A stretch of 64,000 nt of DNA, from positions 64,566-128,565 of IMG/VR virus record IMGVR_UViG_3300008952_000015; one strand, given 5' to 3'. A program made the translations under genes and the position numbers. This document shows, piece after piece, positions 45,274 to 63,761 of this stretch. Within the stretch, counting starts at the first letter, position 1. Each line of letters opens with the position of its first letter. Below the pieces are notes generated by a model. That model was not told the DNA's origin, searched no databases, and saw nothing but the letters and a program-made list of their open reading frames with translations. The DNA is from a virus.

Positions 45274-45375
45274 GGGGTCACCTCTATCAAACAGGCTTTT
45301 ATTAGTATATGTAAAACTATTGCCCTGAGTAATGAACAGAACTATAGCCATAAGTAATCCATTTGGGGTAAAGTA

Positions 45376-45678
45376 TTATTCTTTATCTAACATAAAGGTA
45401 GCCCTAGTATCAGCTATTGCACCCCTATATTCTAAAGTTAAATCTCCCTTTAAGACCTGCCCGCGCCGCCTGGTTGAATTTACTGGGCTACTGGGGCTAT
45501 CTGTTTTTTTATTATTCTTTACATTCAAAACCTCATTATGAATGTAGCTTATAGATCTCACCATAGCCTTCTGATTATTATTTAAAGCTTTTATTTTAGC
45601 CAGCATAAACTGAAAGACCACGCCCATCGAAACTGTAAGGAGTATGAATAGAGCATAGAATGTAAACTCTTGAGACAT
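45376..45678 (-). CDS. Membrane-anchored hypothetical protein
   Basis: N-terminal TM helix. Confidence 0.6.
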   Translation of the reverse strand: MSQEFTFYALFILLTVSMGVVFQFMLAKIKALNNNQKAMVRSISYIHNEVLNVKNNKKTDSPSSPVNSTRRRGQVLKGDLTLEYRGAIADTRATFMLDKE

Positions 45679-45706
45679 AATTATATCCTTTCTATTAAAT
45701 AAAGAA

Positions 45707-45789
45707 AGGGCTCTTAAAGCATAGTTCCTGGGCCGCCTTACTGATTTACTGGGCGAATTTCGGAAAGTATAGCTTGCTTTAAGAGCCCT
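45707..45789. other. 15-bp perfect inverted repeat enclosing 53 nt (small RNA candidate)
   Basis: AGGGCTCTTAAAGCA ... TGCTTTAAGAGCCCT. Confidence 0.6.
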
Positions 45790-46083
45790 GTTATATTTAA
45801 TACTACTCTATTTAATATAAATTATTTTGCAAGTCGCGAACATCTCTTTATTTTTTTGCCTATAGAGTATTTAATCAATGGCTTTTAATGTATCTATAAA
45901 CCAGATTAAATGCCCAGCTGGTTACGAGCTCGACGCTTAACGAGTCATTCTTTCTTTCTAATATTTTTTATTAAATTTTGTAAACCTTTTGCCCGGCTTA
46001 CATCGCATTCTAAGTCACAGCGATTGCAATAAATGATAGCCTATTTCTATTAAAAATCATTCTTATATTTATTTTTGAGATTT

Positions 46084-46102
46084 TTTTCTACATCGGTTAT
46101 AT
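46084..46102 (+). promoter_or_regulatory. Extended phage promoter motif
   Basis: TTTTCTACATCGGTTATAT preceded by TTGAGA. Confidence 0.8.
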
Positions 46103-46150
46103 CGTTGTGCAGGGTGGTCCTGCTCCTAACAACCAAGAAAAGGAAAACCA

Positions 46151-46633
46151 ATGAGCGACAAAACAAACATTTTTGCTAACGAAAACAGCGAGTCTCCGCT
46201 TCAGACTATCCGCCAGACCATGAGTGTTGCGGTGGATGATGATGGAACTCCTAATGTGAACTTCGCCACGAATCGTGGTAAGGGAAGTGGATCTCAAACC
46301 ATTCCTGTTGCTGACTACGCCGAGGTAGTTAGTACGCTTCAAGAGTATGCAGATGCTGGCATCGAGGGCAGAGAGGAAGAGAGTCTTTCCCCTGCCGAAA
46401 CAATCCGCCGCACCATTCGCGTTGAAGATGGTATGATTTCGTTCCGAACTCGATCTGGTAAAGGCTCTAAGCCAGCCAAGATTCCTTTGGCTCAGTTTGG
46501 CGAAGTCTGCTCTTTGCTTACTGAAACTGTCTCCGCTGTTGAGGCTGCTGGAAGTAAGCTTAGTTCGGCAGAAGAAGAGGCCGATAATTCCGAAGCTTGG
46601 GACGATCAATATGACGATCTAAGCGAAGAGTAA
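46151..46633 (+). CDS. Paralogue 1 of a triplicated two-repeat putative nucleic-acid-binding protein
   Basis: High similarity to 51089-51496 and 55520-55966; internal duplication. Confidence 0.8.
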   Translation: MSDKTNIFANENSESPLQTIRQTMSVAVDDDGTPNVNFATNRGKGSGSQTIPVADYAEVVSTLQEYADAGIEGREEESLSPAETIRRTIRVEDGMISFRTRSGKGSKPAKIPLAQFGEVCSLLTETVSAVEAAGSKLSSAEEEADNSEAWDDQYDDLSEE

Positions 46634-46642
46634 TCTCTCAAT

Positions 46643-46679
46643 AAAAAGGCCCAGGCAGCGATCTAATGCTGCCTGGGCC
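46643..46679. terminator. Terminator hairpin between convergent genes
   Basis: GGCCCAGGCAGC/GCTGCCTGGGCC stem. Confidence 0.75.
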
Positions 46680-46714
46680 ACCCTTTGCTTAAACTGTAAA
46701 ACTATTGCCCTGAG

Positions 46715-46897
46715 TTAGTCTACCGTCTTACCTAGGGTTAACTTAACTAAATCTGCTGCGTTCTTCTTCAGAGTTCTCAAGCCCTTTCTAGCTCTAGTCC
46801 CTGCTGCAGCATTACCTCCAGCATTCTTCATTACATCTGTTTCTAAAGAGTCTACTAACTCCTTGAGTTCTTGCCATTTTGTTTCTACTGTAGCCAT
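46715..46897 (-). CDS. Histone H1-like (Hc1 family) protein
   Basis: GNAAAGTRARKGL motif typical of Hc1-like proteins. Confidence 0.75.
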   Translation of the reverse strand: MATVETKWQELKELVDSLETDVMKNAGGNAAAGTRARKGLRTLKKNAADLVKLTLGKTVD

Positions 46898-46996
46898 AAA
46901 AAAATCTCCTTATATAATATTTATTTTTTTACAGGGAAGACACCCCGTCAAATCTATTCTACTTAATTTGTAAAACTATTGCCCAAAAAATTTACC

Positions 46997-47386
46997 TCAG
47001 CAATCATTCGGATCATGTCCAGAACAAGTAGCGATGCAACGAAATCTTAATATCTGATCATTCTCCAGCATATCTGCCTTTATGGATAAGTCATCACCAC
47101 AATGCTTCTTCATAAGCTCGCTAGGGTTGTCCCAAGCTGCTCTGTGATACGAATACCATCTGTCTCCCGATCCCTCATCGGCAAGATGAACCGCTTCAAA
47201 TGCTGCGTTACAAGCCTCTGCTTCTGCTTGCTTATCACTAAGTCCGGGATTTAAAAGCCCTACCTGCTCTATAACTGTAACTGCATAATTTAAAGCACAT
47301 TCATCAGATGCGTGCGTGCGTTCCACTGAAGCCTCCGGACAGGCCGTCAGTAAAGCAGTTGTAATTAAAATTAAAATATATCTCAT
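46997..47386 (-). CDS. Cys-rich lipoprotein
   Basis: MRYILILITTALLTAC lipobox. Confidence 0.7.
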   Translation of the reverse strand: MRYILILITTALLTACPEASVERTHASDECALNYAVTVIEQVGLLNPGLSDKQAEAEACNAAFEAVHLADEGSGDRWYSYHRAAWDNPSELMKKHCGDDLSIKADMLENDQILRFRCIATCSGHDPNDC

Positions 47387-47735
47387 ATACTTACCTCCAA
47401 TAAGTGTATTGTTTCCTAATTGTAAATCTTTTGCCCTGAAAGTTAAGGGACTTTATTAAGTTGTATCTCATCCTCAACTATCTCTGCATCATATATTTTT
47501 TCATCTATATTTTTTTTGTACATATACGCGAGAGAATCCTCGCTAGGCAATTTATTTAAAAAAGCTTTTTTTTTAAATGACTATAATCTTGACACATCGG
47601 GGGCTTCTGCTTCGAGGAAGGAGTAGTAACACGTTGGCGATAAGGGGTTTTTCTTCCATCTGTCCATCCCATAAAAAATCCCAAGAGATACCCTATGGAG
47701 ACTAAGACTAGACTTCCTATAAATTCTATCATTTA

Positions 47736-47888
47736 TTATCCACGCCAGTAATTCCGCGCACACATGCACGCAAATAAAGCACACAACGCGCCTAGGGCGT
47801 GATTGCCATTCGCGAATAAAGATACAGCAACTCCAGTATTAAACACTGTGCAAGCTAAGCTAAAGTTTTTTGATGTAAAAATTTTCAT
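47736..47888 (-). CDS. Small membrane protein
   Basis: MKIFTSKNF start after a GAGG RBS; two hydrophobic segments. Confidence 0.55.
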   Translation of the reverse strand: MKIFTSKNFSLACTVFNTGVAVSLFANGNHALGALCALFACMCARNYWRG

Positions 47889-47914
47889 AATATCCTCTCT
47901 AGATAAAAAGGGGA

Positions 47915-48044
47915 GGTGGAGCTCACTTGGAGTAGCAGACGATAGTGTGGAGTGCGTATTCTGACCACCTATCTCTTCCGTAGGCTTCGAAGGTACGCCT
48001 CCTGAACACCTACCTTTTTGTAAGCCATCCAAGGAGCTCACACC
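47915..48044 (-). ncRNA. Candidate structured RNA or leader
   Basis: Terminal pairing GGTG-TGAGCTC-CTTGGA-TGGC / GCTA-C-TCCAAG-T-GAGCTC-CACC. Confidence 0.45.
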
Positions 48045-48120
48045 TTTTCTAAACTCCCGTCGAAATTTAGCCCCAAGCCCTCCATACTCTATACCGTTAT
48101 AGTTATATTACTCTAAAGAA

Positions 48121-48252
48121 AATAAGAATTCAGCGTCGATTATTTGAATCATCGAGCGATGGTCTAGCTAGCAACGTTTTCCCCACTCTCTTGACCCAGA
48201 GAGGCTTAGAACTTAAGGGGTCGGGGGTTTCACCCGCCACTGAACTCTTATT
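48121..48252 (-). ncRNA. Candidate structured ncRNA
   Basis: 13-bp closing stem AATAAGAGTTCAG/CTGAATTCTTATT whose G-U pair works only on the minus strand; internal hairpins. Confidence 0.5.
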
Positions 48253-48270
48253 GTTGTCCATTATACTTAG

Positions 48271-48504
48271 TCAGTCTGGATTATGAGCGTTGCAAGTGCA
48301 GCACATTTCATCTTCGTGCTCCGTCTTCTCCCTACACTTGTAGCAGTAATTATAATAATATCCTTCATCATAACCACCTTTATCTTGCATGTGTACGGGT
48401 ACGTACTTCCACACCCAATCTCTTTCCTTAGGCATTACTCTCTTCTCCTGCAAATAGTTAGGCCTCTCTTTATTCAACCTTTTGAGGGTCAATAGATCCC
48501 ACAT
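48271..48504 (-). CDS. Small Zn-finger protein
   Basis: CYKC...H...CCTC motifs. Confidence 0.55.
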   Translation of the reverse strand: MWDLLTLKRLNKERPNYLQEKRVMPKERDWVWKYVPVHMQDKGGYDEGYYYNYCYKCREKTEHEDEMCCTCNAHNPD

Positions 48505-48518
48505 AATTCTCTCCGAAA

Positions 48519-48595
48519 TGGCACGCCCGATAGGATTCGAACCTATGACCCTCGGCTTAGAAGGCCGATGCTCTATCCAGCTGAGCTACGGGCGC
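48519..48595 (-). tRNA. tRNA-Arg(TCT)
   Basis: Anticodon arm TCGGC-CTTCTAA-GCCGA; canonical D and T loops; encoded CCA. Confidence 0.96.
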
Positions 48596-48601
48596 ATATA
48601 A

Positions 48602-49087
48602 TTATTCTACATTTTTCTCTGAATCTTTTTTATTATTTTCAATCATCTTAGCGATTTCTTCGTGCAAGGCTTTATCCCAAGCTTCCTTGGCTTCTTCTGG
48701 GGCCTCATAGCCTTCCTCATAAGCTTCATCAGGATGCACATATCCTGCGTGCTCTACATGCTCTTCTCCAATGCGAAGAAAGCTATCCTCATCCTCGTGT
48801 ATGTGCATATACAGAGCATCCTTGGGAAGCGTAATTGGATCTGAATGTAAAGGAGTTACTACTCGGCCTTCACCTTCTTCAACAAAAGAGAAGGTGGTAG
48901 GGGTATGAAAATAAATTTGGTGGATTTCCCCAGGAAAGCTCACGGGGCCATCAAAAAAGAAGGGAGCTACGGTCGGTAGCTTCTGCCACCATACTCTTAG
49001 CTCATCAATAGTCATATTAGGAACCCACAGCCATTCCCTGTATCCGTACTCTTCTTCTACCTGAACAACGTATTCAAACTGGTCCAT
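48602..49087 (-). CDS. Hypothetical protein
   Basis: 161-aa ORF with GGAG RBS. Confidence 0.65.
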   Translation of the reverse strand: MDQFEYVVQVEEEYGYREWLWVPNMTIDELRVWWQKLPTVAPFFFDGPVSFPGEIHQIYFHTPTTFSFVEEGEGRVVTPLHSDPITLPKDALYMHIHEDEDSFLRIGEEHVEHAGYVHPDEAYEEGYEAPEEAKEAWDKALHEEIAKMIENNKKDSEKNVE

Positions 49088-49260
49088 TACTTACACTCCA
49101 GCCGCTAGGAGATACTCAATCTGAGCTTCTTTTCCATCATTATTAATTGCTGCCGCTTCGCTTGCCTTCACCTCGTGGACTAACTCGTCTAAGTCCTCTA
49201 CTTCCAATTTCTCAAGGTCTTCTTTAGTCATCACTACACTCCGGGCAAAAGTTTTACTAT

Positions 49261-49482
49261 CTATGCTTCTGCAATCGGCTGAGGAAAAGCAGATGAAAAT
49301 AGCATACTTGTGTACACGCTCTGCCCCATCTTTGAAATAGTAATCAAAGGACTCCCATCCTCATCCATCTGAACGTCAAGATAGCCTTTTTTATATAAAG
49401 ATAAAATAGCCTCATTCATATCTCTTTCCATGTAATGAGAATTATTTATTTTCTCTAGCATAAAAGATTCAAATTCACTCAT
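49261..49482 (-). CDS. Small winged-helix-like protein
   Basis: LYKKGYL...ITISKMG pattern. Confidence 0.5.
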   Translation of the reverse strand: MSEFESFMLEKINNSHYMERDMNEAILSLYKKGYLDVQMDEDGSPLITISKMGQSVYTSMLFSSAFPQPIAEA

Positions 49483-50071
49483 CACAATCCTCCTCCTCTT
49501 CTTCTTCTGGCAACTCATAGCAATTATCACCCTGAAACTCACCCTCATAAAACTCTGCATCTCCGGCAAAGCCCATGCCAGCTTCTTCATAATGAAGCTC
49601 AAAGCATAGGGTAGGCCAATCTTTAGAAACTTTTGTTAGAAAGTTTAGGGGAGGAGCCCAAGGAGTCTCAAATGAATAACCAAGAAAAGAATCTTCTGCA
49701 TCATCTAGCTGAGCTTCTGAGGCACCCCACTTACAACCCCAGTTATCATTCTCCCATGTATAGCCTCCATACGCACATGTACGTCCGAGCATTTCTGCTA
49801 CCTTCGCTGCTTGACTTCCATCATAAGGCAACTTCCTAACTTCGTCAGGAACAGGATACAGTGCGTGAAAGGAAAAGACAGAAACTTCTCCTGGCTCTGG
49901 AAGAGACTCGGACAAAGCCTTCAGCCTAACATCATCGTGAATGGGCCACCCACCACCTGTTGCATGGTAGTTATGATATGATTGCACAGGGCCTTCGGCT
50001 GTCACCTTGAACCTCTGAATGTCCTTAGATGGGCCACTTACATTTAGTTTATTCCAACACCAATTAGGCAT
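49475..50071 (-). CDS. DUF1281/YubB ferredoxin-like family protein
   Basis: MPNWCWN, NWGCKW, FETPWAPP and YEEAGMGFAG motifs. Confidence 0.75.
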   Translation of the reverse strand: MPNWCWNKLNVSGPSKDIQRFKVTAEGPVQSYHNYHATGGGWPIHDDVRLKALSESLPEPGEVSVFSFHALYPVPDEVRKLPYDGSQAAKVAEMLGRTCAYGGYTWENDNWGCKWGASEAQLDDAEDSFLGYSFETPWAPPLNFLTKVSKDWPTLCFELHYEEAGMGFAGDAEFYEGEFQGDNCYELPEEEEEEDCDE

Positions 50072-50072
50072 C

Positions 50073-50261
50073 TTACTCTCCCTGCTTTTCGCTATTAGTT
50101 TCGTCATCAAATAGATTTTCAGAAACAAAATCAGCACCACTTGTAAGTACCGACCCAACCTTGTTTACCATAGACTCTGCACTTGCAGGGTTAGTTACGG
50201 CCCAATGCACAAGACAATAAGACAAGCCCAATGCGATTATAATTTTTATATAACTTTCCAT
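50073..50261 (-). CDS. Small membrane protein
   Basis: N-terminal TM helix. Confidence 0.5.
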   Translation of the reverse strand: MESYIKIIIALGLSYCLVHWAVTNPASAESMVNKVGSVLTSGADFVSENLFDDETNSEKQGE

Positions 50262-50322
50262 GTCACTTCCTCTTTATTATTGTACGCACATACGCGTACA
50301 GGGCAAGTATTTTTTATACTCG

Positions 50323-50553
50323 CTACTCTCTCCATCTATCTGATTTAGAGAAAATCATCATATCTTCTTTGTTATCTTCTTTCTCTAGAATCTTTTTAGA
50401 CCTCTCATTACCACACAATGCTTTGTCTCTATGGTGCCACTTCCGAGAAGCCTTCTTTTGGTCATTCTCTGAAGCATATCGGAGCTTTATGATTTCTCCA
50501 CCATTCTTTAGAAATTCAGCAATTAGTTCTTCTGTACTACGTTCGTCACTCAT
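50323..50553 (-). CDS. Hypothetical protein
   Basis: IAEFLKNGGEIIKL motif seen in phage proteins. Confidence 0.6.
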   Translation of the reverse strand: MSDERSTEELIAEFLKNGGEIIKLRYASENDQKKASRKWHHRDKALCGNERSKKILEKEDNKEDMMIFSKSDRWRE

Positions 50554-50567
50554 TATTATCTTCCTTT

Positions 50568-50834
50568 TTAGAAAATAGAAATTGAATTCTTATTCTTCTT
50601 TTTAGAAGTCCTTTTAGAGACTTTCTTCTTTTCTTTTACAGGTGTTACAAATTCATCAGGCGAATAGCCTTCGTCTAAGGCTTGCTGGTTCAGGTCTTTC
50701 CACAAAGCAGTCGGAACCCTACAGTTAGGACACCTACCCATAGAACCATTATAGCCAGCTTTCCCTAGCCAATAATTACCTTCTTCACTCTTGTGATAAT
50801 AGTATTTATATCCATCTAATGTAACTTCCACCAT
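50568..50834 (-). CDS. Hypothetical protein
   Basis: MVEVTL start after an AGGAG RBS. Confidence 0.55.
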   Translation of the reverse strand: MVEVTLDGYKYYYHKSEEGNYWLGKAGYNGSMGRCPNCRVPTALWKDLNQQALDEGYSPDEFVTPVKEKKKVSKRTSKKKNKNSISIF

Positions 50835-51088
50835 CACAAATCTCCTGCTTAGTAATAGGTCAACTGACCTTTCACAAAGATATAATCGGTGCAATAAATA
50901 TGCCAAATAATTTCTATAAGCCGACCAAAGAGTTTGTAAACCTATTGTTTGCTCGGTATGTAAACCTATTGCCCGAGGCTGGGTTGAGGGAAAATTTCAT
51001 TTTATTTTCTACATCGGTTATATCGTTGTGAGAGAATACTCTCTCAAGAAACCCTCCATCATCGGCGGGATTAGACTAGGAGTCTGTT

Positions 51089-51496
51089 ATGCAGTCCATT
51101 TTTACAAGCGAGCACAGCGAGAGTCCCGCAGCAATCCTGCGTAAGACTATGAGCGTCAGTCTCGGTGATGATGGCACCCCGATGGTGTCTTTCGCCGTGA
51201 ACCGAGGCAAGGGGTCTGGTCGTCAATCAATGCCAGTTTCGGAGTTTGCCGATTATGTCGGTGCTCTGGAAGATGCCCTTCAAGCAGGTATCTCGGAGGA
51301 ATCTGACGAGGCTCTTTCGGCAGCAGATATGGTGCGGCGCACCATCCGTCAGGACGAAGGTATTGTATCCTTCCGAGTCCGAGGCGGGAAGGGTGCTAAG
51401 CCAGCGAAGCTGCCAGTTGATAGCTTCTCTGAGGTTGTTGACCTTCTCTCCTCCACTGTTGACGCAGTAGAGGATGCTGGTAGCAAGTTGGCCTAA
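51089..51496 (+). CDS. Paralogue 2 of the triplicated protein
   Basis: See 46151; own promoter motif at 51005. Confidence 0.8.
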   Translation: MQSIFTSEHSESPAAILRKTMSVSLGDDGTPMVSFAVNRGKGSGRQSMPVSEFADYVGALEDALQAGISEESDEALSAADMVRRTIRQDEGIVSFRVRGGKGAKPAKLPVDSFSEVVDLLSSTVDAVEDAGSKLA

Positions 51497-51597
51497 GAGC
51501 ATGGGGGAGGGGCTGCCGAGTAAAGTTCGGACCCTCCCCCATTAGGACGAGTTGTAAATCTTTTGCCCAAAACAGTTCTGACACAGTAAGGACCATT

Positions 51598-51801
51598 ATG
51601 CGCTTCGGAACGAATGAAACTCGGTCAATGTCTAACCAAGCATTGTTCACCCTCATTGATAACAAAAAGCAAGCCATTGAGAGGCTTCAGGAAAAGAAGT
51701 TAGATTCAAAGAAAGAAGAGGTAGAGTATTGCTACCTCGTTCGAGAAAAGCAACGAAGATTTCACAAGCCAGTAAAGCACCCTGGCTGCTGTATCAACTA
51801 A
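51598..51801 (+). CDS. Hypothetical protein
   Basis: AAGGA RBS; bracketed by 15-bp motif copies at 51554 and 51814. Confidence 0.55.
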   Translation: MRFGTNETRSMSNQALFTLIDNKKQAIERLQEKKLDSKKEEVEYCYLVREKQRRFHKPVKHPGCCIN

Positions 51802-51995
51802 GGCTAAGGTCTTGTAAAACTATTGCCCGAGGGGTATAATGAAAACTGGTAAATCAAAACTTTTCAAATCAAGAAAAGATCTTGACGGTCAGTTTCACCG
51901 AGGAAATAAGGGTCGTAGTGCTGCCAAAGCAAAGAAGCATAAAAGATCTATAGAGAAATCTCTAAGGCAAAAGTCCAAAGAGATATGTAAGGACC

Positions 51996-52298
51996 ATGAA
52001 GAATAATTATAAAAAAATAGCTTCTGAAATTGGAGAGTTAGTTCAAGAGAAGAATGATGCTTATGGCGATTCTTTTGGACAAGCCTGTCGAATCTTAGAG
52101 GTTCTTTATCCAAATGGGATAAAACCATTTCAATACAGAGATGCTTTGGCTATAACAAGGGTTATTGATAAGCTATTTAGGTTGGCTAATAAGAAAGATG
52201 CCTTTGGCGAAAGTCCTTGGCGTGACATTTGCGGTTATGCCATATTAGGTGTTGCTAATGATGAAGATGATGAAAAGAACAGAATAGATAATAAGTGA
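51996..52298 (+). CDS. DUF1599 / nucleotide-modification-associated domain 1 protein
   Basis: KNDAYGDSF, DKLFRL and DICGYAIL motifs. Confidence 0.75.
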   Translation: MKNNYKKIASEIGELVQEKNDAYGDSFGQACRILEVLYPNGIKPFQYRDALAITRVIDKLFRLANKKDAFGESPWRDICGYAILGVANDEDDEKNRIDNK

Positions 52299-52516
52299 TG
52301 CAAGATCCGTGCCAAAGCAATGTAAAACTATTGCCCGACGAGCTGTCGGACGAAGAACTAGAGCAGGTAGTTGGCGGGATGAACTACAATCAATTTCAAG
52401 TCTGGCGTGTAAATTATTTAAATAATTTTCTTCACCAGTTATATGATCCTGAGAGAAGTAGAACGGCAAAGCAACCCGGTGTGATTACCGAAAGTGTATC
52501 TCCCCCAAAAAAATAA
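52295..52516 (+). CDS. Small protein with double-glycine leader-like motif
   Basis: ELSDEELEQVVGG. Confidence 0.5.
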   Translation: MMQDPCQSNVKLLPDELSDEELEQVVGGMNYNQFQVWRVNYLNNFLHQLYDPERSRTAKQPGVITESVSPPKK

Positions 52517-52585
52517 GCTGCGCTATTGCTTCCTCCCTCGCCCTACCTGCTGCGACACGAAACGTGGCAGGTAGGGCTTTTCCTT
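52445..52585 (+). ncRNA. Candidate small RNA A
   Basis: Promoter motif 52426-52444, terminator hairpin 52540-52581, two boxes shared with the 53940 RNA. Confidence 0.5.
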
Positions 52586-52604
52586 TTATAAAACATAGGG
52601 GCAA

Positions 52605-52877: not shown

Positions 52878-52946
52878 AAGTAACATGGGCCATCGAGAAA
52901 ATTTTAACATATTTTCTTCACCAATTATATAAGAAAGGAATATAAG

Positions 52947-55457: not shown

Positions 55458-55519
55458 TCAATCGGTTAGAGAGATGAGGCACCTGATTTCCCTGTGCCTC
55501 CCCGTGGGGTTCCAAACTT

Positions 55520-56441: not shown

Positions 56442-56518
56442 GAAGTATAGTATATACCTGTAAAGGTAAAATATACCCAACCGTTAGAATTTTTCAACCA
56501 TAAAAATAGGAGAAAATT

Positions 56519-56749
56519 ATGGGAATGCAAAGAAATCGATCTGCTCGTCAAGCAGAGGCTAAAGAGAGGGATGCTGCTCGGGCAGAACTTACCGATCAGC
56601 AGCAGCTTGATCGACTGGATACAATCCTTGGAGTTGGGATTGGGGCGAAAAAGGAGCGAGCAAGGCTCGCCAAGCGAATTGTTGAGGTTGCAAAAACTAA
56701 GACCTCGGCTCCAAAAAAGAAAAAGAAGGCAACCAAAGGGAAGGAGTAA
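56519..56749 (+). CDS. Small basic protein
   Basis: AGGAG RBS; stop codon supplied by the 15-bp motif. Confidence 0.7.
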   Translation: MGMQRNRSARQAEAKERDAARAELTDQQQLDRLDTILGVGIGAKKERARLAKRIVEVAKTKTSAPKKKKKATKGKE

Positions 56750-56825
56750 AACTATTGCCCGGTGGGGACAGAATATAAGATTTATTTCTTCATCGGTTAT
56801 ATAGTGATGTAATCAGGAGGTAAGC

Positions 56826-57095
56826 ATGGGATTGATAAATGATGATGATACAGGCCGACCGTTATGGTATCGAGCCATCCACCGCAAGGTTTTGGTGGTC
56901 TACACCGAACACGCCTTTGGTGATGACCGTGGAGTGTGGGCTGCTTATGTAGTCCCAGTAAAGGGTGAGAATCATAATAAGGAAGCCCAAACTTGGCGCT
57001 CAGAAGGCGTTAAGATGACCGAAAGTGAGGCTCGTGCTATATACGGTGCTGTGACAGAAGATTTTGACAATCGTGGTTTGAAGTATAATCCCTAA
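56826..57095 (+). CDS. Hypothetical protein
   Basis: GGAGG RBS; promoter motif at 56785. Confidence 0.7.
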   Translation: MGLINDDDTGRPLWYRAIHRKVLVVYTEHAFGDDRGVWAAYVVPVKGENHNKEAQTWRSEGVKMTESEARAIYGAVTEDFDNRGLKYNP

Positions 57096-57101
57096 TAAGG
57101 G

Positions 57102-57515
57102 ATGGGAGGCGGTATGTTTGACGAATTGGTAGGACAAGCGGTCCAGGCAATCATTCTTGAGAAAGAGGGCCAAACCCTTATTATCAAAACCGACAAGTAT
57201 AAATATACTTTCGTTGCGGAAGGTGACTGCTGTGCTGTCGCCTATGTTTTGGAGCCTGACGAAGAAGATCTGAGGGATTTTCTGGGGAACAAAATTGTTC
57301 AAGCCACCTCAAGTGCCGTTAGTGTTACTAACGATGATTGGGGAAACCAGACCGATACCGAATTCTACAACCTTCGAACTCACAAGGGAGAGCTAACCCT
57401 TGAGCTTCGGACAGAACATAACGGATATTATTGTGGCTGGCTGATGCTGGTCGGCAGGGAAGAACTGTGGCCTATCCATGATGACATTCGAGAGAAGGCA
57501 ATCCGGGGAATGTAA
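57102..57515 (+). CDS. Conserved phage protein (DCC...NGYY)
   Basis: GDCCA and HNGYYCG motifs; stop codon lies inside the 15-bp motif. Confidence 0.7.
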   Translation: MGGGMFDELVGQAVQAIILEKEGQTLIIKTDKYKYTFVAEGDCCAVAYVLEPDEEDLRDFLGNKIVQATSSAVSVTNDDWGNQTDTEFYNLRTHKGELTLELRTEHNGYYCGWLMLVGREELWPIHDDIREKAIRGM

Positions 57516-57595
57516 ATCTTTTGCCCGGCCGGTGGAGAATTTGAAATAATTTTCTTCATCGGTTATATCATGGTGTAACAAACACGGAGTGTAAG

Positions 57596-57901
57596 ATGAG
57601 TGTAGAATTCGATTACGAAGATATTGAAGAAGGCTATAACGTCGAAAATGAACAATGGTTCTTTTCTGCGGCGATGGTCAGCACTTGTGAGCCGCTTTTC
57701 AATGATTGCGAAGATAATTATGATGTTAGGGCAAAGCTCGAAAATGCTGGTGTCATCGACTCAACTGTTGAGGACGACACCGAATCTTGTCAGCTCTGGT
57801 GCTATTTCAATAGCAAGGCAGACGGCGAAAGCTTCGTTGATCGGCTGAACGAATATCTTGTAAAGAAAGCTGCGGTGCTCGAAGAAGCGGCGGCGTTCTA
57901 A
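57596..57901 (+). CDS. Acidic hypothetical protein
   Basis: GGAG RBS; promoter motif at 57550. Confidence 0.7.
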   Translation: MSVEFDYEDIEEGYNVENEQWFFSAAMVSTCEPLFNDCEDNYDVRAKLENAGVIDSTVEDDTESCQLWCYFNSKADGESFVDRLNEYLVKKAAVLEEAAAF

Positions 57902-57932
57902 AGTAAATCTTTTGCCCAGGGAGGGTGATAAA

Positions 57933-58271
57933 GTGGGATTTTTTAGTTGGAATTGTAATGGATGCGGCCACCCGATGCTGAACCCATACTCTGTGAATGG
58001 CATCAATAGCTGGATGGCGAATGTTGTAGTCATTGAGGGTGGCAGCAAAACTCTGCTGAGAGGCGAGTACGATGGATATGGTCGGGTCGATGATAGAGAT
58101 ATACAGCTCGGACCCTGGAAAGATAATTCCAATCTTGAGAACGAACCATGCTGTTATCACGATGCGTGCTGGGTGAAGGCCGGCGAACCTACAGAATATA
58201 TCCCATCAACGCACGCAGAGGATCAAGGATACTTTTTTGACGATGAACACGATATAGAACCCCCAACGTAA
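57933..58271 (+). CDS. Conserved Cys-containing phage protein
   Basis: GTG start GFFSWNC..C, YDGYG, H..CW and DQGYF motifs. Confidence 0.7.
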   Translation: MGFFSWNCNGCGHPMLNPYSVNGINSWMANVVVIEGGSKTLLRGEYDGYGRVDDRDIQLGPWKDNSNLENEPCCYHDACWVKAGEPTEYIPSTHAEDQGYFFDDEHDIEPPT

Positions 58272-58312
58272 ATCTATTGCCCGCGCACGCACGGGTTTTG
58301 CATGGAGATAGC

Positions 58313-58540
58313 ATGGAAAATAACCAAGGACCAATAACCCTGGATGACATTGAGGCAACTCTAAATGTCCATCGAAATTATTTGCGGCAGCTCGCGCTGG
58401 ATATAATCCTATTGGAAGATGATGATATAAATAAAAGTCTCTTTGAGTATATTCAGGTCATGGGTGAGTTTGAGCTCCTCGGAGAAATGACGGCCCTAAC
58501 GATGAAATTGCACCGACAAAATAATCACCCGCACACATGA
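58313..58540 (+). CDS. Hypothetical protein
   Basis: GGAG RBS. Confidence 0.5.
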   Translation: MENNQGPITLDDIEATLNVHRNYLRQLALDIILLEDDDINKSLFEYIQVMGEFELLGEMTALTMKLHRQNNHPHT

Positions 58541-58783
58541 AAATTTTAACTAAAAAAAGTATCATCATCGGATGATACGTATAGTTAAAAAATCCTTGAA
58601 GATTATTGTAATGTGTGCTACTATTTGTGCAATAACTTTTATTGCACAATATAGCTTCCTTAGCGCAGCAAAAGCTTTTGGCCTTGCGCACGCACAGGTA
58701 CAAAATATCCCGGACCCCGGGCAATAGGTTTACAATTTAAATAAAAGATAGCAGCCGAAAGGCTGCCATCAATTATTACGCGC

Positions 58784-59098
58784 CTATTCTTCAGACGCGG
58801 GCGCAAAGGTAATCTCTCCCCTGCATAGGCCCAAACATACTTCCAGCATATTATTCAGCCCAAGATTGGCAGGGGTAACTGGAATTCCCCAGTTTACATT
58901 CTTCCCAATATCCTCAACGAAGATTCCGCTATAAGGAACATTTCCAAGAATATGAAAAGTTGACTCATGGTGTTTCGGCACTGTGACCGTCACTCCTTCA
59001 TCATTACGATAAGTGAGTCCAATCCTTGTCATTTGGAGGTTGGACTTTTTAAATCCAATCTTTCTCATTCTTGCAAAAAATTGCTTACGAGTCAACAT
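58784..59098 (-). CDS. HicA-like small protein
   Basis: MRKIGF...VTVPKHH pattern reminiscent of the HicA fold. Confidence 0.45.
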   Translation of the reverse strand: MLTRKQFFARMRKIGFKKSNLQMTRIGLTYRNDEGVTVTVPKHHESTFHILGNVPYSGIFVEDIGKNVNWGIPVTPANLGLNNMLEVCLGLCRGEITFAPASEE

Positions 59099-59242
59099 TA
59101 TTCTTCTCCTCGGTATAGGTTTTTACGGAATAATTATCTGCGTCTGCCTGTGCATGTTCGGCCTTTCGCCTCTCTTTGATGCGAGCCTTGATAGCTTCTT
59201 GTCGGCTTCTGTCCGGTTGGGTGATTACCTTTACTCTAAACA

Positions 59243-59425
59243 TTATCCCATATCCTCTAATTCCAGCCAAGCTGAAATGTTTTGTTCAAGGCATCCAGCC
59301 TCGTCATCATTGATGTCTAATTCTTCAAGGACACGCTCACACACGTCATCACCACATTTTCCTGTCAAAACCATGTGAGCAATTTCCATCGCAGATACTG
59401 TCATGTTAAATTCAAAGTCTTCCAT
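59243..59425 (-). CDS. Small acidic protein
   Basis: AAGGAG RBS; promoter motif at 59451. Confidence 0.6.
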   Translation of the reverse strand: MEDFEFNMTVSAMEIAHMVLTGKCGDDVCERVLEELDINDDEAGCLEQNISAWLELEDMG

Positions 59426-59536
59426 TCTAATCTCTCCTTGTTACACTCTTATATAACTGGTGCAGAAAATAATCTCATATTCTGCTTAAAATTTCCCGCC
59501 GCCCGGGGCAAAAGATTTACACACTCACATATGCTC

Positions 59537-60178
59537 TTATTGAACATGATAATCAATGTTTTTAACATCTACTTGCCAACACGCTCGGCAGGGTCCACAC
59601 TTATTATCACGCTTGTATGCCTCACACGGCATGCCCATATTAGCTTGAACGGTAGATGTGGGGAGATCCCCAAAAGATTTAGGCGGTTCCCTTCCAATCA
59701 TTGGAGCGGATAGCCTAACCACAAGATTTGTAGGCCACACATCTCCAACAATCGCCGCTGCCTCTTTATACATCCTATTTTCCTTTGTCGGCATCCAAAA
59801 CTTAATGTTTGGTAGGTTATTAGCTACCGCAACCCACATCAAAAGATGTTTGACAGACTGAATGTCACCGCTGTCATGAATCCTAAAATAAGGGTCGGCA
59901 GGGTCTGTATAGTGACCAATCAAAAGAGTCATCGCCTCAATCCATCGAGGATGCTGCAAGGCTTTTAGGCGAGCTTGGTGAGCATCCTTTACAACTTGAT
60001 ACCTATAGTTTCCGTTGAACGCATAACACTTGCTGCATACACTGCCTTCGACCTTAGCCAGCTTAGCACCTGTTTTGCAGTCAAATGCTGACAAACTTGT
60101 CGACCATCCCGGCATCTTAGATGGTTTGCCTAAGCCGCTTTTATGACCCGTTATTTCTTTCGCCTCACCCAACTTCAT
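59537..60178 (-). CDS. Gp88-like (radical-SAM-related) phage protein
   Basis: C...CSKCYA, FRIHDSGD and CGPCRACW motifs. Confidence 0.75.
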   Translation of the reverse strand: MKLGEAKEITGHKSGLGKPSKMPGWSTSLSAFDCKTGAKLAKVEGSVCSKCYAFNGNYRYQVVKDAHQARLKALQHPRWIEAMTLLIGHYTDPADPYFRIHDSGDIQSVKHLLMWVAVANNLPNIKFWMPTKENRMYKEAAAIVGDVWPTNLVVRLSAPMIGREPPKSFGDLPTSTVQANMGMPCEAYKRDNKCGPCRACWQVDVKNIDYHVQ

Positions 60179-60317
60179 ACCCGCCTCCGTTATTACATAA
60201 CGATATAACCGATGAAGAAAAAAATCTTAAATAGTTTTGTAAAGCTATTGTATCAATCCCTAAAAATTGTTGGCACGATTCTTGCAAGAATACTTTTGTA
60301 AATCTTTTGCCCGGATT

Positions 60318-60361
60318 GAAAAAAAGACCGATGAAACAGGAGGCATTGTTTCATCGGTCTT
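60318..60361 (-). terminator. Intrinsic terminator
   Basis: AAGACCGATGAAACA/TGTTTCATCGGTCTT stem with U-tail on the minus strand. Confidence 0.75.
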
Positions 60362-60391
60362 GAGCAAAAGATTTAGAAACCCATTACTCCA

Positions 60392-60847
60392 TCACCTTTC
60401 CCAAGGTGGACGGGGATCACCACTTCCCCAATTTTCTTCCCAACTATTCCTCATTCGCTGGATTCCTTCGAGTGGAACCCCATGACCATTACGATAAGCC
60501 AACTCCTCATCTGTACACCCGCCATCGTAGGTGCTTACAACAGTTACACGATAACCGTGTTTTTCGGCCATATCAAAATATGGCTGCATCTCCCACCGCT
60601 GGCAAAAGGTGTTGTGAACAACAACGCTTCGACCATTAGCCATAGCTGTAGCTGCACGGTCCTGACAGTGCGCGTGTGCTTGCGGAAGGAGGTTTGGGCT
60701 AAAAATATACTCTCCCTCTGGAGTAGTAAAGAAATCATCCGCTGCCAAAGAAACAGCCCCAGTACCAGCGCAAAGCAGGTTTCCCAGAGTGGTCTTTCCA
60801 GACCCAGAAATTCCTCGAATAAGAATAATAGACTTTTGCATGATCAT
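60392..60847 (-). CDS. P-loop kinase (AAA_33 / N4BP2-like)
   Basis: RGISGSGKTT, ADDFF, VHNT and RNGHGVP motifs. Confidence 0.85.
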   Translation of the reverse strand: MIMQKSIILIRGISGSGKTTLGNLLCAGTGAVSLAADDFFTTPEGEYIFSPNLLPQAHAHCQDRAATAMANGRSVVVHNTFCQRWEMQPYFDMAEKHGYRVTVVSTYDGGCTDEELAYRNGHGVPLEGIQRMRNSWEENWGSGDPRPPWER

Positions 60848-60910
60848 CTCCCTGTGTATCGATATAACTGGTGAAGAAAATTATTTCAAATTTTCCATGT
60901 GTACGTGGGC

Positions 60911-61279
60911 TTACCCCTTCCAGTTCAGCCATTCTTGATCAGTCTGTGGAGCAAGACCCTTCTCTACTCCTAAGTTTACCTGAACCATTCGATCCCGTTG
61001 ATTTTTAAGGATTATATTTTGCTCCTCAAGTTCCACCATTTTAGATGAAAGAAAATGAATATACTCGCCCGCATCCCTGCCGGCATCTTCTTGCCCCTGT
61101 TTATGAGCCTCCTGGATGACAAAGGCTATAAGATCAGCAAGCTCAGGGTAGGCGTTACCGGGGAACCCCTCATCCTCTACCCAGGGAAATTTATCGTAAA
61201 TTGCTTCGTACAAAGCTTCCTCAGGAAAATCTCCCACCACATAATCTGGCGGGTCCATATCGTTTGGTGATCTAATCAT
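60911..61279 (-). CDS. Hypothetical protein
   Basis: 122-aa ORF with GGAG RBS. Confidence 0.6.
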   Translation of the reverse strand: MIRSPNDMDPPDYVVGDFPEEALYEAIYDKFPWVEDEGFPGNAYPELADLIAFVIQEAHKQGQEDAGRDAGEYIHFLSSKMVELEEQNIILKNQRDRMVQVNLGVEKGLAPQTDQEWLNWKG

Positions 61280-61290
61280 TATAGCAACTC

Positions 61291-61611
61291 CTACAAAACT
61301 TGCTTTTTGAGCCAGTCAACAAAATCGAAAGCATTAGTTTTGCCACCGATATTGAACTGAACGGGGGCGGTTCCAGCCCAAAACTCTGATGGGGTAATCC
61401 CAGTATCAGGGCAGTACAAGGTTGTATATTTCCAGTCGTACAGGGTAAAAACTTCTCCCTCATTATTTTCAAAAATATACTCCCCGGAAACTTTATACCC
61501 GTCACATTCAATCGGCTCACCAAACTTCTCGATAAGCTTCGCTGGTGAAAGGTCAACCTCTGATTGACGGTGAGAACCATTTGTATCTGCATCTTGTGAT
61601 AATCTAAACAT
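61291..61611 (-). CDS. Conserved phage protein (paralogue of 32717-33067)
   Basis: Shared motifs; promoter motif at 61632. Confidence 0.7.
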   Translation of the reverse strand: MFRLSQDADTNGSHRQSEVDLSPAKLIEKFGEPIECDGYKVSGEYIFENNEGEVFTLYDWKYTTLYCPDTGITPSEFWAGTAPVQFNIGGKTNAFDFVDWLKKQVL

Positions 61612-61687
61612 TTGTTATCTCCTTCACAACCATATAACCGATGTAGAAAAATATATCAAATAGTTATGTAAATCTTTTGCCCATGAT

Positions 61688-61954
61688 TTATTCTGAATCT
61701 CTTGATGGGGACTCTTGCATACACACGCATCTTGTGGGTGTCACTTCTTGCATGACAACCCCAGTGGCATCGCAGGCACTCTTACACTCCTCTATAATAT
61801 CTTCACTTACCTGAAAAGAATAGAAAAGTACGATAAGGGAAATAGTGGCGCAAATAGCAAGAAATATATCCCGATATACTCTATAGGTATAGAGCTTTCG
61901 AGTTATAGTCTTTAACTCGTCCTCGCACGTTTCTGGTGATAAATGATGCGCCAC
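61688..61954 (-). CDS. Membrane protein with Cys-rich C-terminus
   Basis: TM helix, CKSAC...CVC. Confidence 0.55.
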   Translation of the reverse strand: MAHHLSPETCEDELKTITRKLYTYRVYRDIFLAICATISLIVLFYSFQVSEDIIEECKSACDATGVVMQEVTPTRCVCMQESPSRDSE

Positions 61955-61963
61955 TATTTCCTC

Positions 61964-62299
61964 CTATTTCAAAGATGGGCCAGCTTTCTTCATAAGAGTC
62001 TTTTGCTTATGAAGAAAGCTCGTCCCATCTTCATCTTCGATATAACGATAGACCTTGACCTTGTAACGCTGGCCCTTTTTTATCTTACCATCTTTATGGT
62101 CACGCCTACACGTATGCACCGAAAGAGAAATAAGTTTATTCCAAGTCATTCCATCATCAAGCTCATAACCTGCATCGGCAAGCCACGGACGATCTGCGTT
62201 TTCAAGCAAACCTTCAGGACACGAGCATCCACCTTCGGACGCATGGCATCCACATGAATAATAGTACATTCCCCAATCATCTGGTACGTTATAGCTCAC
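61964..62299 (-). CDS. Cys/His-containing hypothetical protein
   Basis: CGCHASEGGCSC. Confidence 0.55.
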   Translation of the reverse strand: MSYNVPDDWGMYYYSCGCHASEGGCSCPEGLLENADRPWLADAGYELDDGMTWNKLISLSVHTCRRDHKDGKIKKGQRYKVKVYRYIEDEDGTSFLHKQKTLMKKAGPSLK

Positions 62300-62484
62300 T
62301 CTCCACCTCGCGTTTTCCAATCAGGCACAACATTGTAAACTTTCGATCCGTTTTGGATTTCCTCAAGCTCCTCCTCAGTAACCTCAACCGCTACCGTTGG
62401 TTCGCCAGAATAAGTTTCCCCATCCTCAAGCACATAGATTGTGTGCGTCCGGGGCAAAAGATTTACTTTATTTTCTTTATACAT
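62296..62484 (-). CDS. Hypothetical protein
   Basis: MYKENKVNLLP start; VNLLP is encoded by the 15-bp motif. Confidence 0.5.
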   Translation of the reverse strand: MYKENKVNLLPRTHTIYVLEDGETYSGEPTVAVEVTEEELEEIQNGSKVYNVVPDWKTRGGE

Positions 62485-62719
62485 CGTCAAACTCCCATTG
62501 GGCATCGGTGAACTCATACGCACGCTTATCTGATTCGGGCCTATCATTACTCTCAATAATAGTATAATAATACGCTCCCGAACGATGATATTCAACAGAT
62601 TTTATCTCAAGAGCCTGTTCATAGGTTTCAAAGGGTCCAGCCATTGTATCCTGAGATTGAACTCCACTCACGAAACCCATAATAGCATCATCTCTCTTTT
62701 CAACAATCCAAAAACTCAT
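62477..62719 (-). CDS. Hypothetical protein
   Basis: GGAGG RBS; promoter motif at 62739. Confidence 0.6.
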   Translation of the reverse strand: MSFWIVEKRDDAIMGFVSGVQSQDTMAGPFETYEQALEIKSVEYHRSGAYYYTIIESNDRPESDKRAYEFTDAQWEFDDV

Positions 62720-62773
62720 CTCTAACCTCCCTGCTTCAATATAACTGATGAAGAAAAAATACTCAAACTTTGC

Positions 62774-63103
62774 CTACCACCACGATGAATAGATAATCTC
62801 GTACCCATCTTCAATGGCTTTATAGGCCATTGTAATAAACTCCTCGGTAGCATTATCATCTTCGGGTCGAGACTGACCCCAGAAGAACCCGCTTGCAGAT
62901 TCAAGATTTCGATAGTCTTTCTCAAGGCGCTCCAAGTCACAAGGCTTTAGCTTCAACTCAACACAGTTGAACTGCCCCTTGCCTCCTCGACTATGATAAA
63001 GGTCTGCCATCCAGCCCTCAAGATTAGAGTGCTTTCGCCAATACATAATCTCGGTATCTTCTTCGCCGCTCTTTCGAGCGAAAGCATATTGGTCAAGTCC
63101 CAT
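62774..63103 (-). CDS. Conserved phage protein
   Basis: MGLDQY, YWRKH, GFFWG and YSSWW motifs. Confidence 0.75.
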   Translation of the reverse strand: MGLDQYAFARKSGEEDTEIMYWRKHSNLEGWMADLYHSRGGKGQFNCVELKLKPCDLERLEKDYRNLESASGFFWGQSRPEDDNATEEFITMAYKAIEDGYEIIYSSWW

Positions 63104-63251
63104 CTCTTATCTCCTGTTCAACAAAGTTCTTCTCTCACAACGATATAACCGATGTAGAAATATATTTCAAATAATTATGTAAAACTATTGCCCGGGACGA
63201 AAATGAGATTATTTTCTTCATCGGTTATATTGCTATGGGAAAAGAACTCTT

Positions 63252-63327
63252 GGGCCGTTAGCTCAACAGGTAGAGCATCGGACTTTTAATCCGCAGGTTC
63301 TGGGTTCAAGTCCCAGGCGGCCCACCA
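63252..63327 (+). tRNA. tRNA-Lys(TTT)
   Basis: Anticodon loop CTTTTAA; canonical D and T loops; encoded CCA. Confidence 0.93.
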
Positions 63328-63347
63328 TACACAGCAGAGAGGATAGG

Positions 63348-63578
63348 ATGAAAGACAGAGAGTTTGGGGTTATTCTAATGGTCGTATCAGTTATTATTAT
63401 TGGTACAGTTTTTTTCTTCAACAGCGTTGATGCTCCGCCGGAGAGTGCCAGCGAGGGTTACGTTGCGCCGGTGGAATACGTTGACTTTGATGAGCCAATG
63501 GAAATCAGCGTTCCTATAACGCATTACGATTTTAGCGATGAACCTCCCATGTTGATTACGCCCAATATGGTAGATTAG
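63348..63578 (+). CDS. Small membrane-anchored protein (paralogue of 52947-53165)
   Basis: TM helix then Y.DF.E.PM.I twice. Confidence 0.65.
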   Translation: MKDREFGVILMVVSVIIIGTVFFFNSVDAPPESASEGYVAPVEYVDFDEPMEISVPITHYDFSDEPPMLITPNMVD

Positions 63579-63586
63579 CGGAAAGA

Positions 63587-63660
63587 TGGGGCGAGGTGTC
63601 ACAGGCAGACATATCGGGTTGTTACCCCGGACGTTGTTGGTTCGAGTCCAACCGCCCCAG
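63587..63660 (+). tRNA. Atypical tRNA-Asn(GTT)
   Basis: Acceptor TGGGGCG/CGCCCCA + G discriminator; T-arm GTTGG-TTCGAGT-CCAAC; anticodon loop TTGTTAC; non-canonical D arm. Confidence 0.7.
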
Positions 63661-63761
63661 CCTTTCCGTAAATCTTTTGCCCTCGCGAGGGCACTGATTT
63701 AGATAGAAAATGATATATTTTTCTTCATCGGTTATATAAGAGTGTAACAAGGAGATAGACC

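Follow-up and report, generated by a model that had tools for sequence, protein, structure and literature searches.

Two described phage systems come closest to the element reported here, a 15-bp word repeated in the IMG/VR virus record IMGVR_UViG_3300008952_000015 (G000), whose last 64,000 nucleotides (G000:C1:64566-128565, the end of the stretch being the contig end) were analysed and are hereafter called the window. The first are the PeSL (promoter-early stem-loop) elements, mobile regulatory cassettes of T4-type phages (Arbiol et al., 2010, PMC2839356; Comeau et al., 2014, PMC4122927). PeSLs are repeated intergenic elements in hyperplastic regions of small orphan genes, combine strong sigma-70-like early promoters with stem-loops and begin at the stop codon of the previous gene, whereby indels and replacements between related phages are bordered by the element and a single element is found at the empty site. 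The same papers describe a similarity spread over about 100 bp, propose exchange in its A/T-rich part and report mini-circles. The second are the operators and stoperators of mycobacteriophage L5 and its type (cluster A), where an asymmetric 13-mer is recognised by a monomer that has two DNA-binding domains (PMC9283540). In these phages more than 20 short asymmetric sites lie at promoters and in short intergenic spaces, span the whole genome of a temperate phage and strictly follow transcription.

The word resembles the PeSLs, as outlined above, in its place within a region of small orphan genes (26 of 28 exact copies within 19 kb in G000, 57 of 58 within 30 kb in the related record G004), in the early promoters and stem-loops that accompany part of its copies, in its start at the previous stop codon and in the indels and replacements that it borders. 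It differs in its sharp 15-bp core with 11 invariant positions, which is separable from the promoter (60 % of the copies have none nearby), asymmetric, strand-polar and kept across lineages with different promoters. With the L5-type sites it shares the high number of short asymmetric copies, their location at promoters and in short intergenic spaces and an orientation biased with transcription, and a two-domain monomer of the L5 type would match its two unlike arms, which are one helical turn from each other. In contrast to the stoperators as they are described there, the word occupies one region, about 30 % of its copies are oriented against transcription, the -35 element is downstream of the sites and not covered by them, and neither an integrase nor an L5-like repressor was identified here. 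A sharply bounded, strand-polar, lineage-conserved 15-bp core thus sets the word apart from both systems.

We regard the word, with a confidence somewhat above even, as a protein-recognised operator that is also the boundary element of PeSL-like mobile regulatory cassettes and has stoperator-like features. Large phages keep their rapidly changing genes for host takeover and anti-defence in early small-gene regions, and ArdC-like, SprT-like and kinase genes are seen in the present one. The word offers a sequence handle for locating such regions in metagenomes, for identifying the protein by which it is read and for building or swapping cassettes in large phages. Chi, KOPS/SRS and uptake sequences are replicon-wide, unlike the word, which is confined to one region in G000, G004, G011 and G007. 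In the modular theory associated with Susskind and Botstein and with lambdoid phages, 'linker' or 'boundary' sequences are said to be short conserved module borders that direct exchange; to our knowledge, they have rarely been demonstrated. Here one defined, lineage-conserved word lies at about 15 % of the mosaic junctions in its region, and a 15-bp word at about one in seven junctions is a concrete, testable case for such linkers. The operators of the phage P1 C1 repressor are asymmetric, about 17 bp long and scattered in many copies, sometimes head-to-head; they serve genome-wide immunity and overlap promoters, and we know of no link between them and cassette borders. Literature listings on huge-phage intergenic repeats and boundary sequences, with supplements outside the search, contained no description of the word.

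Sequence, promoters, breakpoints and polarity of the word

An exact search of the window with GTAAAHCTWTTGCCC gave 26 matches, 21 on the plus and 5 on the minus strand, compared with 0 in 100 dinucleotide-preserving shuffles, and reproduced every coordinate and strand of the copies listed in the initial annotation. Allowing up to 2 mismatches raised the number to 30 (0.88 expected), the additions being 45112 (plus, 1 mismatch), 7518 (plus, 1 mismatch) and two doubtful sites with 2 mismatches. The whole G000 record (128,565 bp, CheckV completeness 38 %) holds 28 exact copies, 23 plus and 5 minus, the two outside the window being at C1:57766 and C1:60469, and the reversed control word gave 0. 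The confinement to the small-gene region noted earlier is therefore true within this fragment, with 26 of the 28 copies in its last 19 kb. The word has no internal symmetry, as had been claimed, and consists of two conserved arms, GTAAA-N4-TTGCCC, with the G000-type form GTAAA[N]CT[W]TTGCCC. Across 427 distinct contexts of G000-type sites, position 7 was C in 99 % and position 8 was T in 100 %; eleven positions are invariant, including the G/C-rich ends. Conservation stops sharply at 15 bp, and the flanks are unconserved except for a preceding T and the G-richness of the 3' flank on the motif strand. The word supplies the TAA stop of three open reading frames (ORFs), 56519-56749, 57102-57515 and 57912-58271, as first noticed. 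The V(K/N)LLP peptides reported for two further copies do exist as frames (VKLLP at 52322 in ORF 52295-52516, VNLLP at 62452 in ORF 62296-62595), but these ORF stretches may be non-coding.

A scan of metagenome contigs with a word + promoter pattern returned 81 stretches, from which 80 marine loci with 377 kb and 446 copies were analysed. An exact 15-mer scan of viral contigs gave 114 stretches, with only single copies among the matches listed (80 of 114), mostly due to chance, and a word + promoter composite scan of viral contigs gave 0 matches. A scan for the word 8 nt before TTGA gave matches due mostly to chance, although the record G011 came from it.

The extended promoter of the initial annotation proved to be a conserved, sigma-70-like sequence, aaaTTGAgAttATTTTCTwCAyCrGTTATAt, with a Shine-Dalgarno sequence and a start codon behind it. 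The record has 27 of these promoters, 19 of them between 45 and 64 kb of the window (9 plus, 10 minus). The cores of these 19 (CAYCRGTTATA, for example at 56096..56106 on the minus strand) start at 46091, 51012, 52433, 53925, 56190, 56791, 57557, 63219 and 63726 on the plus strand, and at 45021, 55166, 56025, 56096, 59452, 60204, 60863, 61633, 62740 and 63144 on the minus strand. Among promoter-word pairs at most 150 bp apart in the 80 metagenome loci, the promoter points away from the word in 295 and towards it in 6. With the promoter leftwards and the word rightwards, an arrangement for which the search pattern did not select, 76 of 122 pairs had a core-to-word distance of 24-26 nt, which leaves 8-10 nt between the word and the -35 element. 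In the selected arrangement the distances peaked at 24-26, 33-37 and 42-44 nt, successive peaks differing by one helical turn. G004 and G011 share the 8-nt spacing despite their different promoter sequences. Of 330 copies in the metagenome loci, 133 have a promoter core no more than 50 bp away and 197 have none in that range. The proposal that the word is an activator box thus stands as far as a promoter-linked protein box is concerned, with a spacing to -35 fixed in three lineages with different promoters; this support does not extend to the sign of regulation.

Gain and loss of DNA at the word are directly visible between related records. Between G000 and G006 a 199-bp unit is polymorphic: in G000 the one-gene cassette 45127..45325, made up of a 51-aa ORF (45118-45273, minus) and one word copy, stands between direct copies at 45112 and 45311, the former being the variant GTAAAACTAATGCCC (45112..45126, plus, 1 mismatch) at its left border, whereas G006 has a single word copy at the 45112-45325 site with matching flanks on both sides. 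At C1:57766, G001 and G006 carry an extra gene of ~320-350 bp that begins exactly at the 3' edge of the word. When the loci were compared all against all, 663 distinct internal homology endpoints emerged, of which 102 were no more than 3 bp from the word (15.4 % versus 2.7 % at random), compared with 18 at the promoter core (2.7 % versus 1.9 %). Among endpoints up to 25 bp from a copy, 5'-side homology halts at word position 15-16 in 40 of 103, and 3'-side homology begins at -3 to +2 of the word in 50 of 90. Counting only strict junctions, that is, endpoints with no colinear continuation within 250 bp, 67 of 453 were at the word (14.8 % versus 2.9 % at random). Moreover, in 4 of 39 colinear indels the two ends were direct copies and the empty site had one copy, where 0.5 % would be expected, and in 19 the word stood at one border (13.5 % expected). 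The small-gene regions of G000 and G004 have about ten gene families in common, in a different order.

These endpoints, indels and examples bear out the breakpoint part of the integron-like cassette model suggested initially, and the word does recall attC/attI sites in splitting arrays of small genes by a repeated site in one orientation, with single-gene gain or loss at that site. The integron mechanism itself was not supported. Unlike in integrons, there is no imperfect palindrome of the ~57-141-bp attC type, which folds as single-stranded DNA, no IntI-type tyrosine recombinase was found in five records, genes run in both directions and many have their own promoter, and G004 has tandem copies with no genes between them. 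Tyrosine (PF00589) and serine (PF00239) recombinases were each found in 0 of 5 records, two of which are 99-100 % complete but lack this word form; as G000 and G004 are both incomplete, absence from these two is not proven. A Pfam scan of 93 representative proteins of the region revealed no nuclease or recombinase family.

The initial annotation described the 21:5 strand bias as independent of gene direction, which is only partly so. In 33 contigs with at least 6 copies, 263 copies were in the majority and 70 in the minority orientation, while a no-bias simulation had a mean majority of 208 and a maximum of 226 in 2,000 trials; promoters in the same contigs were split 127 to 156 relative to the majority word direction, so that the bias goes beyond transcription. 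It nevertheless follows transcription in part: at same-direction gene junctions in the window 15 copies point with transcription and 5 against, and among 408 copies classed by their flanking coding strands 154 point with it, 64 against, 55 are in divergent and 37 in convergent positions and 98 are unclear. The 154:64 split and the 263:70 polarity together mean that orientation correlates with transcription on top of a genome-level bias. For the polar loading site proposed in the initial annotation, the strand polarity is thus real, and the data speak neither for nor against such a site.

Stem-loops frequently follow the word. Of 430 flanks on its 3' side, 168 had a folding energy of -8 kcal/mol or lower, compared with 107 for shuffled sequences and 69 for upstream flanks, and 34 terminator-like hairpins were found where 16.7 were expected; at 4 sites the word itself, read on the opposite strand as GGGC and a T-rich remainder, received a terminator-like score. 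Many copies have neither a promoter nor a stem-loop nearby. Pairing of the GCCC of the word within the hairpin was considered and rejected, since it was not above control (54 % versus 45 % in shuffled sequences; 53 % versus 61 % in G004).

Word forms in related records and candidate partner proteins

Related records were searched with the degenerate pattern GTAAANNNNTTGCCC, the reversed control of which gave 0 in every record. It detected 30 copies in G000, 58 in G004 (15 plus, 43 minus; terminase 78 % identical), 57 of the latter within C1:5-35.5 kb, 3 in G001, 4 in G006 and 8 in G011, all on the plus strand; with a relaxed left arm G011 had 26 plus and 4 minus copies. The records G003, G005 and G007-G010 gave 0-2 copies each. 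The G004 word, GTAAAYRNWTTGCCC, has the same arms as that of G000 and a different middle, and G011 likewise has the arms with another middle. The G004 word forms tandem arrays of 2-4 copies ~34 bp apart with no gene between them, as well as head-to-head pairs 8 bp apart, both as expected for co-operative binding. The words of G007 and G009 end in TTCTCCC(C). In G007 (395 kb, 100 % complete) 35 of 45 matches lie within 18.5 kb (C1:143443-161904). In G009 (C1:2059-18160) this ending is preceded by G(T/C)AAAC(T/C)TT, and 19 of 22 matches are on one strand. This sister word of G007 and G009 is clustered, strand-biased and partly arranged in inverted pairs, and it provides a natural series for finding a protein that co-varies with the right arm. 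In G005 (99 % complete) no comparable repeat was found. The word is therefore a lineage-variable, clade-wide feature of the small-gene region.

Two protein families are leads to a partner of the word. Family A has more members than any other family of the region (33 in 21 contigs), with three paralogues per record in G000, G004 and G009, and is conserved in every small-gene region seen. The G000 paralogues lie at 46151..46633 (plus, a tandem-repeat protein), 51089..51496 (plus, the one modelled) and 55520..55966 (minus). The protein is built of tandem strand-strand-strand-helix units and has GKG loops and an acidic tail. The model made of it (pLDDT 79) bears a weak likeness to the PUR/PC4 single-strand binders (Foldseek E 0.011, probability 0.93 to human PURA), with VIA Z scores of at most 4.2, a range that the tool calls common by chance. 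Family A is present in 5 of 5 records with a word form and in 0 of 4 with none or one chance-level copy, one of these four being complete. Pfam, PHROG and PDB-sequence searches for its function gave no match, and the Atlas returned only unnamed viral clusters.

The second lead is an endonuclease VII/HNH-like protein of 126 aa (G000:C1:56222-56602, minus; phrog_3322, E 3e-22), the gene of which adjoins that of the HU-like protein; its PHROG matches are named 'endonuclease', 'HNH endonuclease', 'endonuclease VII' and T4 'Srd'. The gene occurs in the four long word-bearing records (G000, G004, G011, G007) and is absent from the complete G005, and an isolated word copy stands in its operon in G000, G001, G004 and G006. 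Only the ligase, Family A and this endonuclease-like family are found in all four long word-bearing records but not in G005, a weak presence-absence profile because there is a single informative negative genome. The HU/IHF-family protein was dropped as a candidate binder for want of support, being present in all five tested records, including those without the word, with near-identical DNA-binding arms.

How the word might act

Invariant arms with a lineage-specific middle, a fixed and phased position upstream of promoters that otherwise differ, and the arrays and head-to-head pairs of G004 point to a sequence-specific protein near early promoters. The word would then be a bipartite asymmetric recognition site, its arms GTAAA and TTGCCC about one helical turn apart, and a typical unit would run from the previous stop codon through the word, often a G+C-rich stem-loop and an optional strong sigma-70-type early promoter to a small gene. 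In a first role it might be the operator of a conserved putative factor, most likely phage-encoded, acting at about -45 to -59 of early promoters and at promoter-less junctions. In a second role, recombination would join unrelated DNA at the word, the presumable joining place since it is the sole sequence common to all cassettes. Exchange between direct copies would delete, insert or swap cassettes, as PeSL elements do. Such direct-repeat exchange, be it excision and re-insertion or unequal crossing-over, keeps the copies in direct orientation whatever the gene direction and would account for the polarity. From the conservation, the promoter geometry, the polarity and the breakpoints and indels, all of them directly seen, we infer binding by a protein, regulation of either sign and recombination that may be homology-driven or enzyme-assisted.

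Several observations weigh against an operator that doubles as a cassette border. A single border of the indel was at the word in 19 of 39 cases (13.5 % expected) and neither border in 16 of 39 (86 % expected); one-border indels are not predicted by plain repeat-to-repeat exchange, and the extra gene at C1:57766, which has no second word copy at its far end, is itself of this kind. The crossover point cannot be placed, as the variable middle bases travel with either flank. Strict junctions were also enriched in the whole promoter element (48 of 453, 10.6 % versus 4.3 % at random), so part of the word signal may reflect any conserved island among diverged spacers. The metagenome counts are not independent, because the loci were chosen by the word + promoter pattern and several of them overlap or share one population. 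At same-direction junctions 64 of 218 copies point against transcription, unlike L5 stoperators, and a site at -45 to -59 is clear of both -35 and -10, which is unusual for a repressor. Finally, no binding protein of the word was identified, the candidates above being leads only.

One-border events would be expected if the word were the target of a dedicated nuclease, nickase or unconventional recombinase that cuts at its edge, with untemplated repair of the break, so that cassette insertion and excision were its main effect and regulation secondary. We consider this unlikely. The word is, per base, a stronger junction hot spot than the longer promoter (5.1-fold versus 2.5-fold over random), the junction edges are sharp, and the distribution of the endonuclease VII/HNH-like gene, present in the four long word-bearing records with an isolated word in its operon and absent from the complete record without the word, would fit such an enzyme, but that profile has its single informative negative genome. 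Tyrosine and serine recombinases were found in none of the five records, the 93 representative region proteins match no nuclease or recombinase family in Pfam, and both the gene-less tandem arrays of G004 and the fixed promoter spacing suit a binding site better than a cut site. There is likewise an outside chance of a dedicated strand-specific cassette exchange that works without a tyrosine or serine recombinase, in which a phage protein, possibly the endonuclease VII/HNH-like enzyme or Family A, nicks or melts the polar word and thereby captures, excises and reshuffles promoter-gene cassettes of the early anti-defence region in huge marine phages. If true, it would be a phage counterpart of the integron, made from different parts.

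Polarity beyond transcription (263:70 against 127:156 for promoters; 26 plus to 4 minus in G011; 19 of 22 in G009) and the G-rich 3' flank on the motif strand might also mean that the word is read as single-stranded DNA, for example in the course of replication, entry or repair, and serves as a polar site for loading, priming or protection, its associations with promoters and recombination being side effects. This is improbable for a word that is limited to about 20-30 kb instead of being genome-wide, and that in G004 is common in both orientations, often as head-to-head pairs. Family A, with its weak model likeness to the PUR and PC4 single-strand binders and its presence in 5 of 5 word-bearing records and 0 of 4 others (one of the four complete), would be a candidate reader; however, its fold matches fall in the range that the tool calls common by chance. 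In addition, the Family A protein of G009 is close to that of G000 although the right arm of the word differs, hence protein and site do not co-vary.

The position at -45 to -59, the helical phasing of the more distant copies and the A/T-rich core are also what an UP-element-like or host-factor site (RNA polymerase alpha, Fis- or IHF-type) might show, boosting early promoters with no phage-specific partner. The word may resemble the consensus of the distal UP element and, in its N4-TTG layout, that of IHF sites, and an HU/IHF-family protein is encoded in all five tested records. Such a site is distinctly improbable, since eleven invariant positions with G/C-rich ends are far more specific than known UP, Fis and IHF sites, 197 of 330 copies are more than 50 bp from any promoter core, the right arm differs between phage lineages, and records lacking the word have HU-like proteins similar to those of word-bearing ones.

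That the word acts at the RNA level, within a terminator, as a processing site or as a translational operator just upstream of ribosome-binding sites, is very improbable: copies do lie 10-30 nt before start codons in plus-strand operons, point with transcription in 154 of 218 cases at same-direction junctions, are often followed by a stem-loop and score as terminator-like on the opposite strand at 4 sites, but 64 of 218 point against transcription, many are placed past a terminator and ahead of the following promoter, where transcripts should be scarce, GCCC pairs no more often than in shuffled controls, and tandem and head-to-head arrays stand upstream of promoters.

Individual copies and neighbouring genes

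The small-gene hyperplastic region with the word, of an early or anti-defence type, extends over 45112..64000 and reaches the contig end. Within it the word has three settings: between a terminator and the next promoter, between back-to-back promoters, and at gene junctions inside operons, where it precedes the ribosome-binding site by a few bases. By the gene calls of the window, 4 copies are in divergent and 2 in convergent spacers. The word stands at most junctions of plus-strand genes and is rare among minus-strand genes, which are roughly twice as many.

At the left of the region, the plus copies 45311..45325, 46970..46984 and 47422..47436 are flanked by minus-strand genes, and the minus copy 49243..49257 has the same orientation as the minus-strand genes around it. 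The plus copy 45980..45994 is in a divergent intergenic spacer. Two lone plus copies separate back-to-back promoters: 56131..56145, between 56096 (minus) and 56190 (plus) and 8 nt from the -35 of the minus promoter, and 63179..63193, between 63144 (minus) and 63219 (plus). The same distance of 8 nt separates the plus copy 61668..61682 from the -35 of promoter 61633 (minus). Convergent genes flank the plus copies 46696..46710, past the terminator 46648-46679, and 54212..54226.

Upstream of plus-strand promoters are the plus copies 50960..50974 (promoter 51012), 53874..53888 (53925), 56746..56760 (56791), 57512..57526 (57557) and 63668..63682 (63726, the copy lying past a tRNA-Asn), of which 56746..56760 and 57512..57526 also give the TAA of the preceding ORF. 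The minus copy 59506..59520 is upstream of promoter 59452 (minus). The plus copy 52322..52336, with the VKLLP frame, lies past the gene end at 52298, and promoter 52433 (plus) is further downstream. Plus-strand genes flank the plus copies 51554..51568 (start codon 51598, 29 nt on), 51814..51828 (start codon 51839, 10 nt on) and 57903..57917; the plus copy 58268..58282 provides the third TAA stop, and 53267..53281 (plus) is an exact match. Next to terminators are the minus copies 54426..54440, directly past 54455-54480 (minus), and 58719..58733, past 58747-58770 (minus), together with the plus copy 60298..60312 between terminator 60324-60361 (minus) and promoter 60204 (minus). The minus copy 62452..62466, which reads VNLLP, is within its ORF.

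About 700 bases with no convincing ORF (54441-55166, minus) stretch from the promoter at 55166 (minus) to the terminator 54455-54480 (minus) and are a possible non-coding RNA; a search of 44-64 kb against Rfam gave only tRNAs above threshold and none in 54441-55166. The 93 representative region proteins matched only 14 Pfam families. In the metagenome loci, the small-gene regions of relatives encode ArdC-like anti-restriction proteins (ArdcN + zincin peptidase), SprT-like and Hc1 histone-like proteins, as well as GP88, AAA_33 kinase and metallophosphatase proteins, a gene content that fits an early anti-defence or host-takeover region. With the GP88-like region gene as query, viral contigs gave distant relatives only. 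The G000 contig ends at window position 64000, inside the region, and that of G006 ends 367 bp past its fourth copy; assemblies that stop in or at the edge of the region are as expected if populations are polymorphic there.

G000 is a fragment of a huge marine phage. It encodes a gpA-type large terminase, with 150 relatives among IMG/VR contigs, a DnaE-type polymerase, two GroEL-like proteins, SbcCD-like proteins, an FtsK-like ATPase, an HU-family protein, a DNA ligase and a PurA-like enzyme, together with a transfer-messenger RNA (tmRNA) and six tRNAs, and its DNA was present in 20 runs of 13 studies of marine or seawater metagenomes, with no RNA run among those listed. The PurA-like enzyme, an adenylosuccinate-synthetase-like protein, is short (338 aa; window 3177-4193, minus). 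A Z-genome, suggested by the PHROG name PurZ, was dismissed, as the protein is far nearer to cellular PurA (E 3e-56) than to solved entries that we take to be phage PurZ (E 3e-13). The phage tmRNA (window 24429-24799, minus) has the tag peptide ANDNYYYNEFALAA. All six tRNAs are in the window, three of them in the small-gene region (48519-48595, 63252-63327 and 63587-63662). Outside that region, an IMPDH/GMP-reductase gene is located at C1:63286-64389, and the FtsK/SpoIIIE-family ATPase (364 aa; G000:C1:44388-45482, minus) belongs to a tailed phage that also has a gpA-type terminase.

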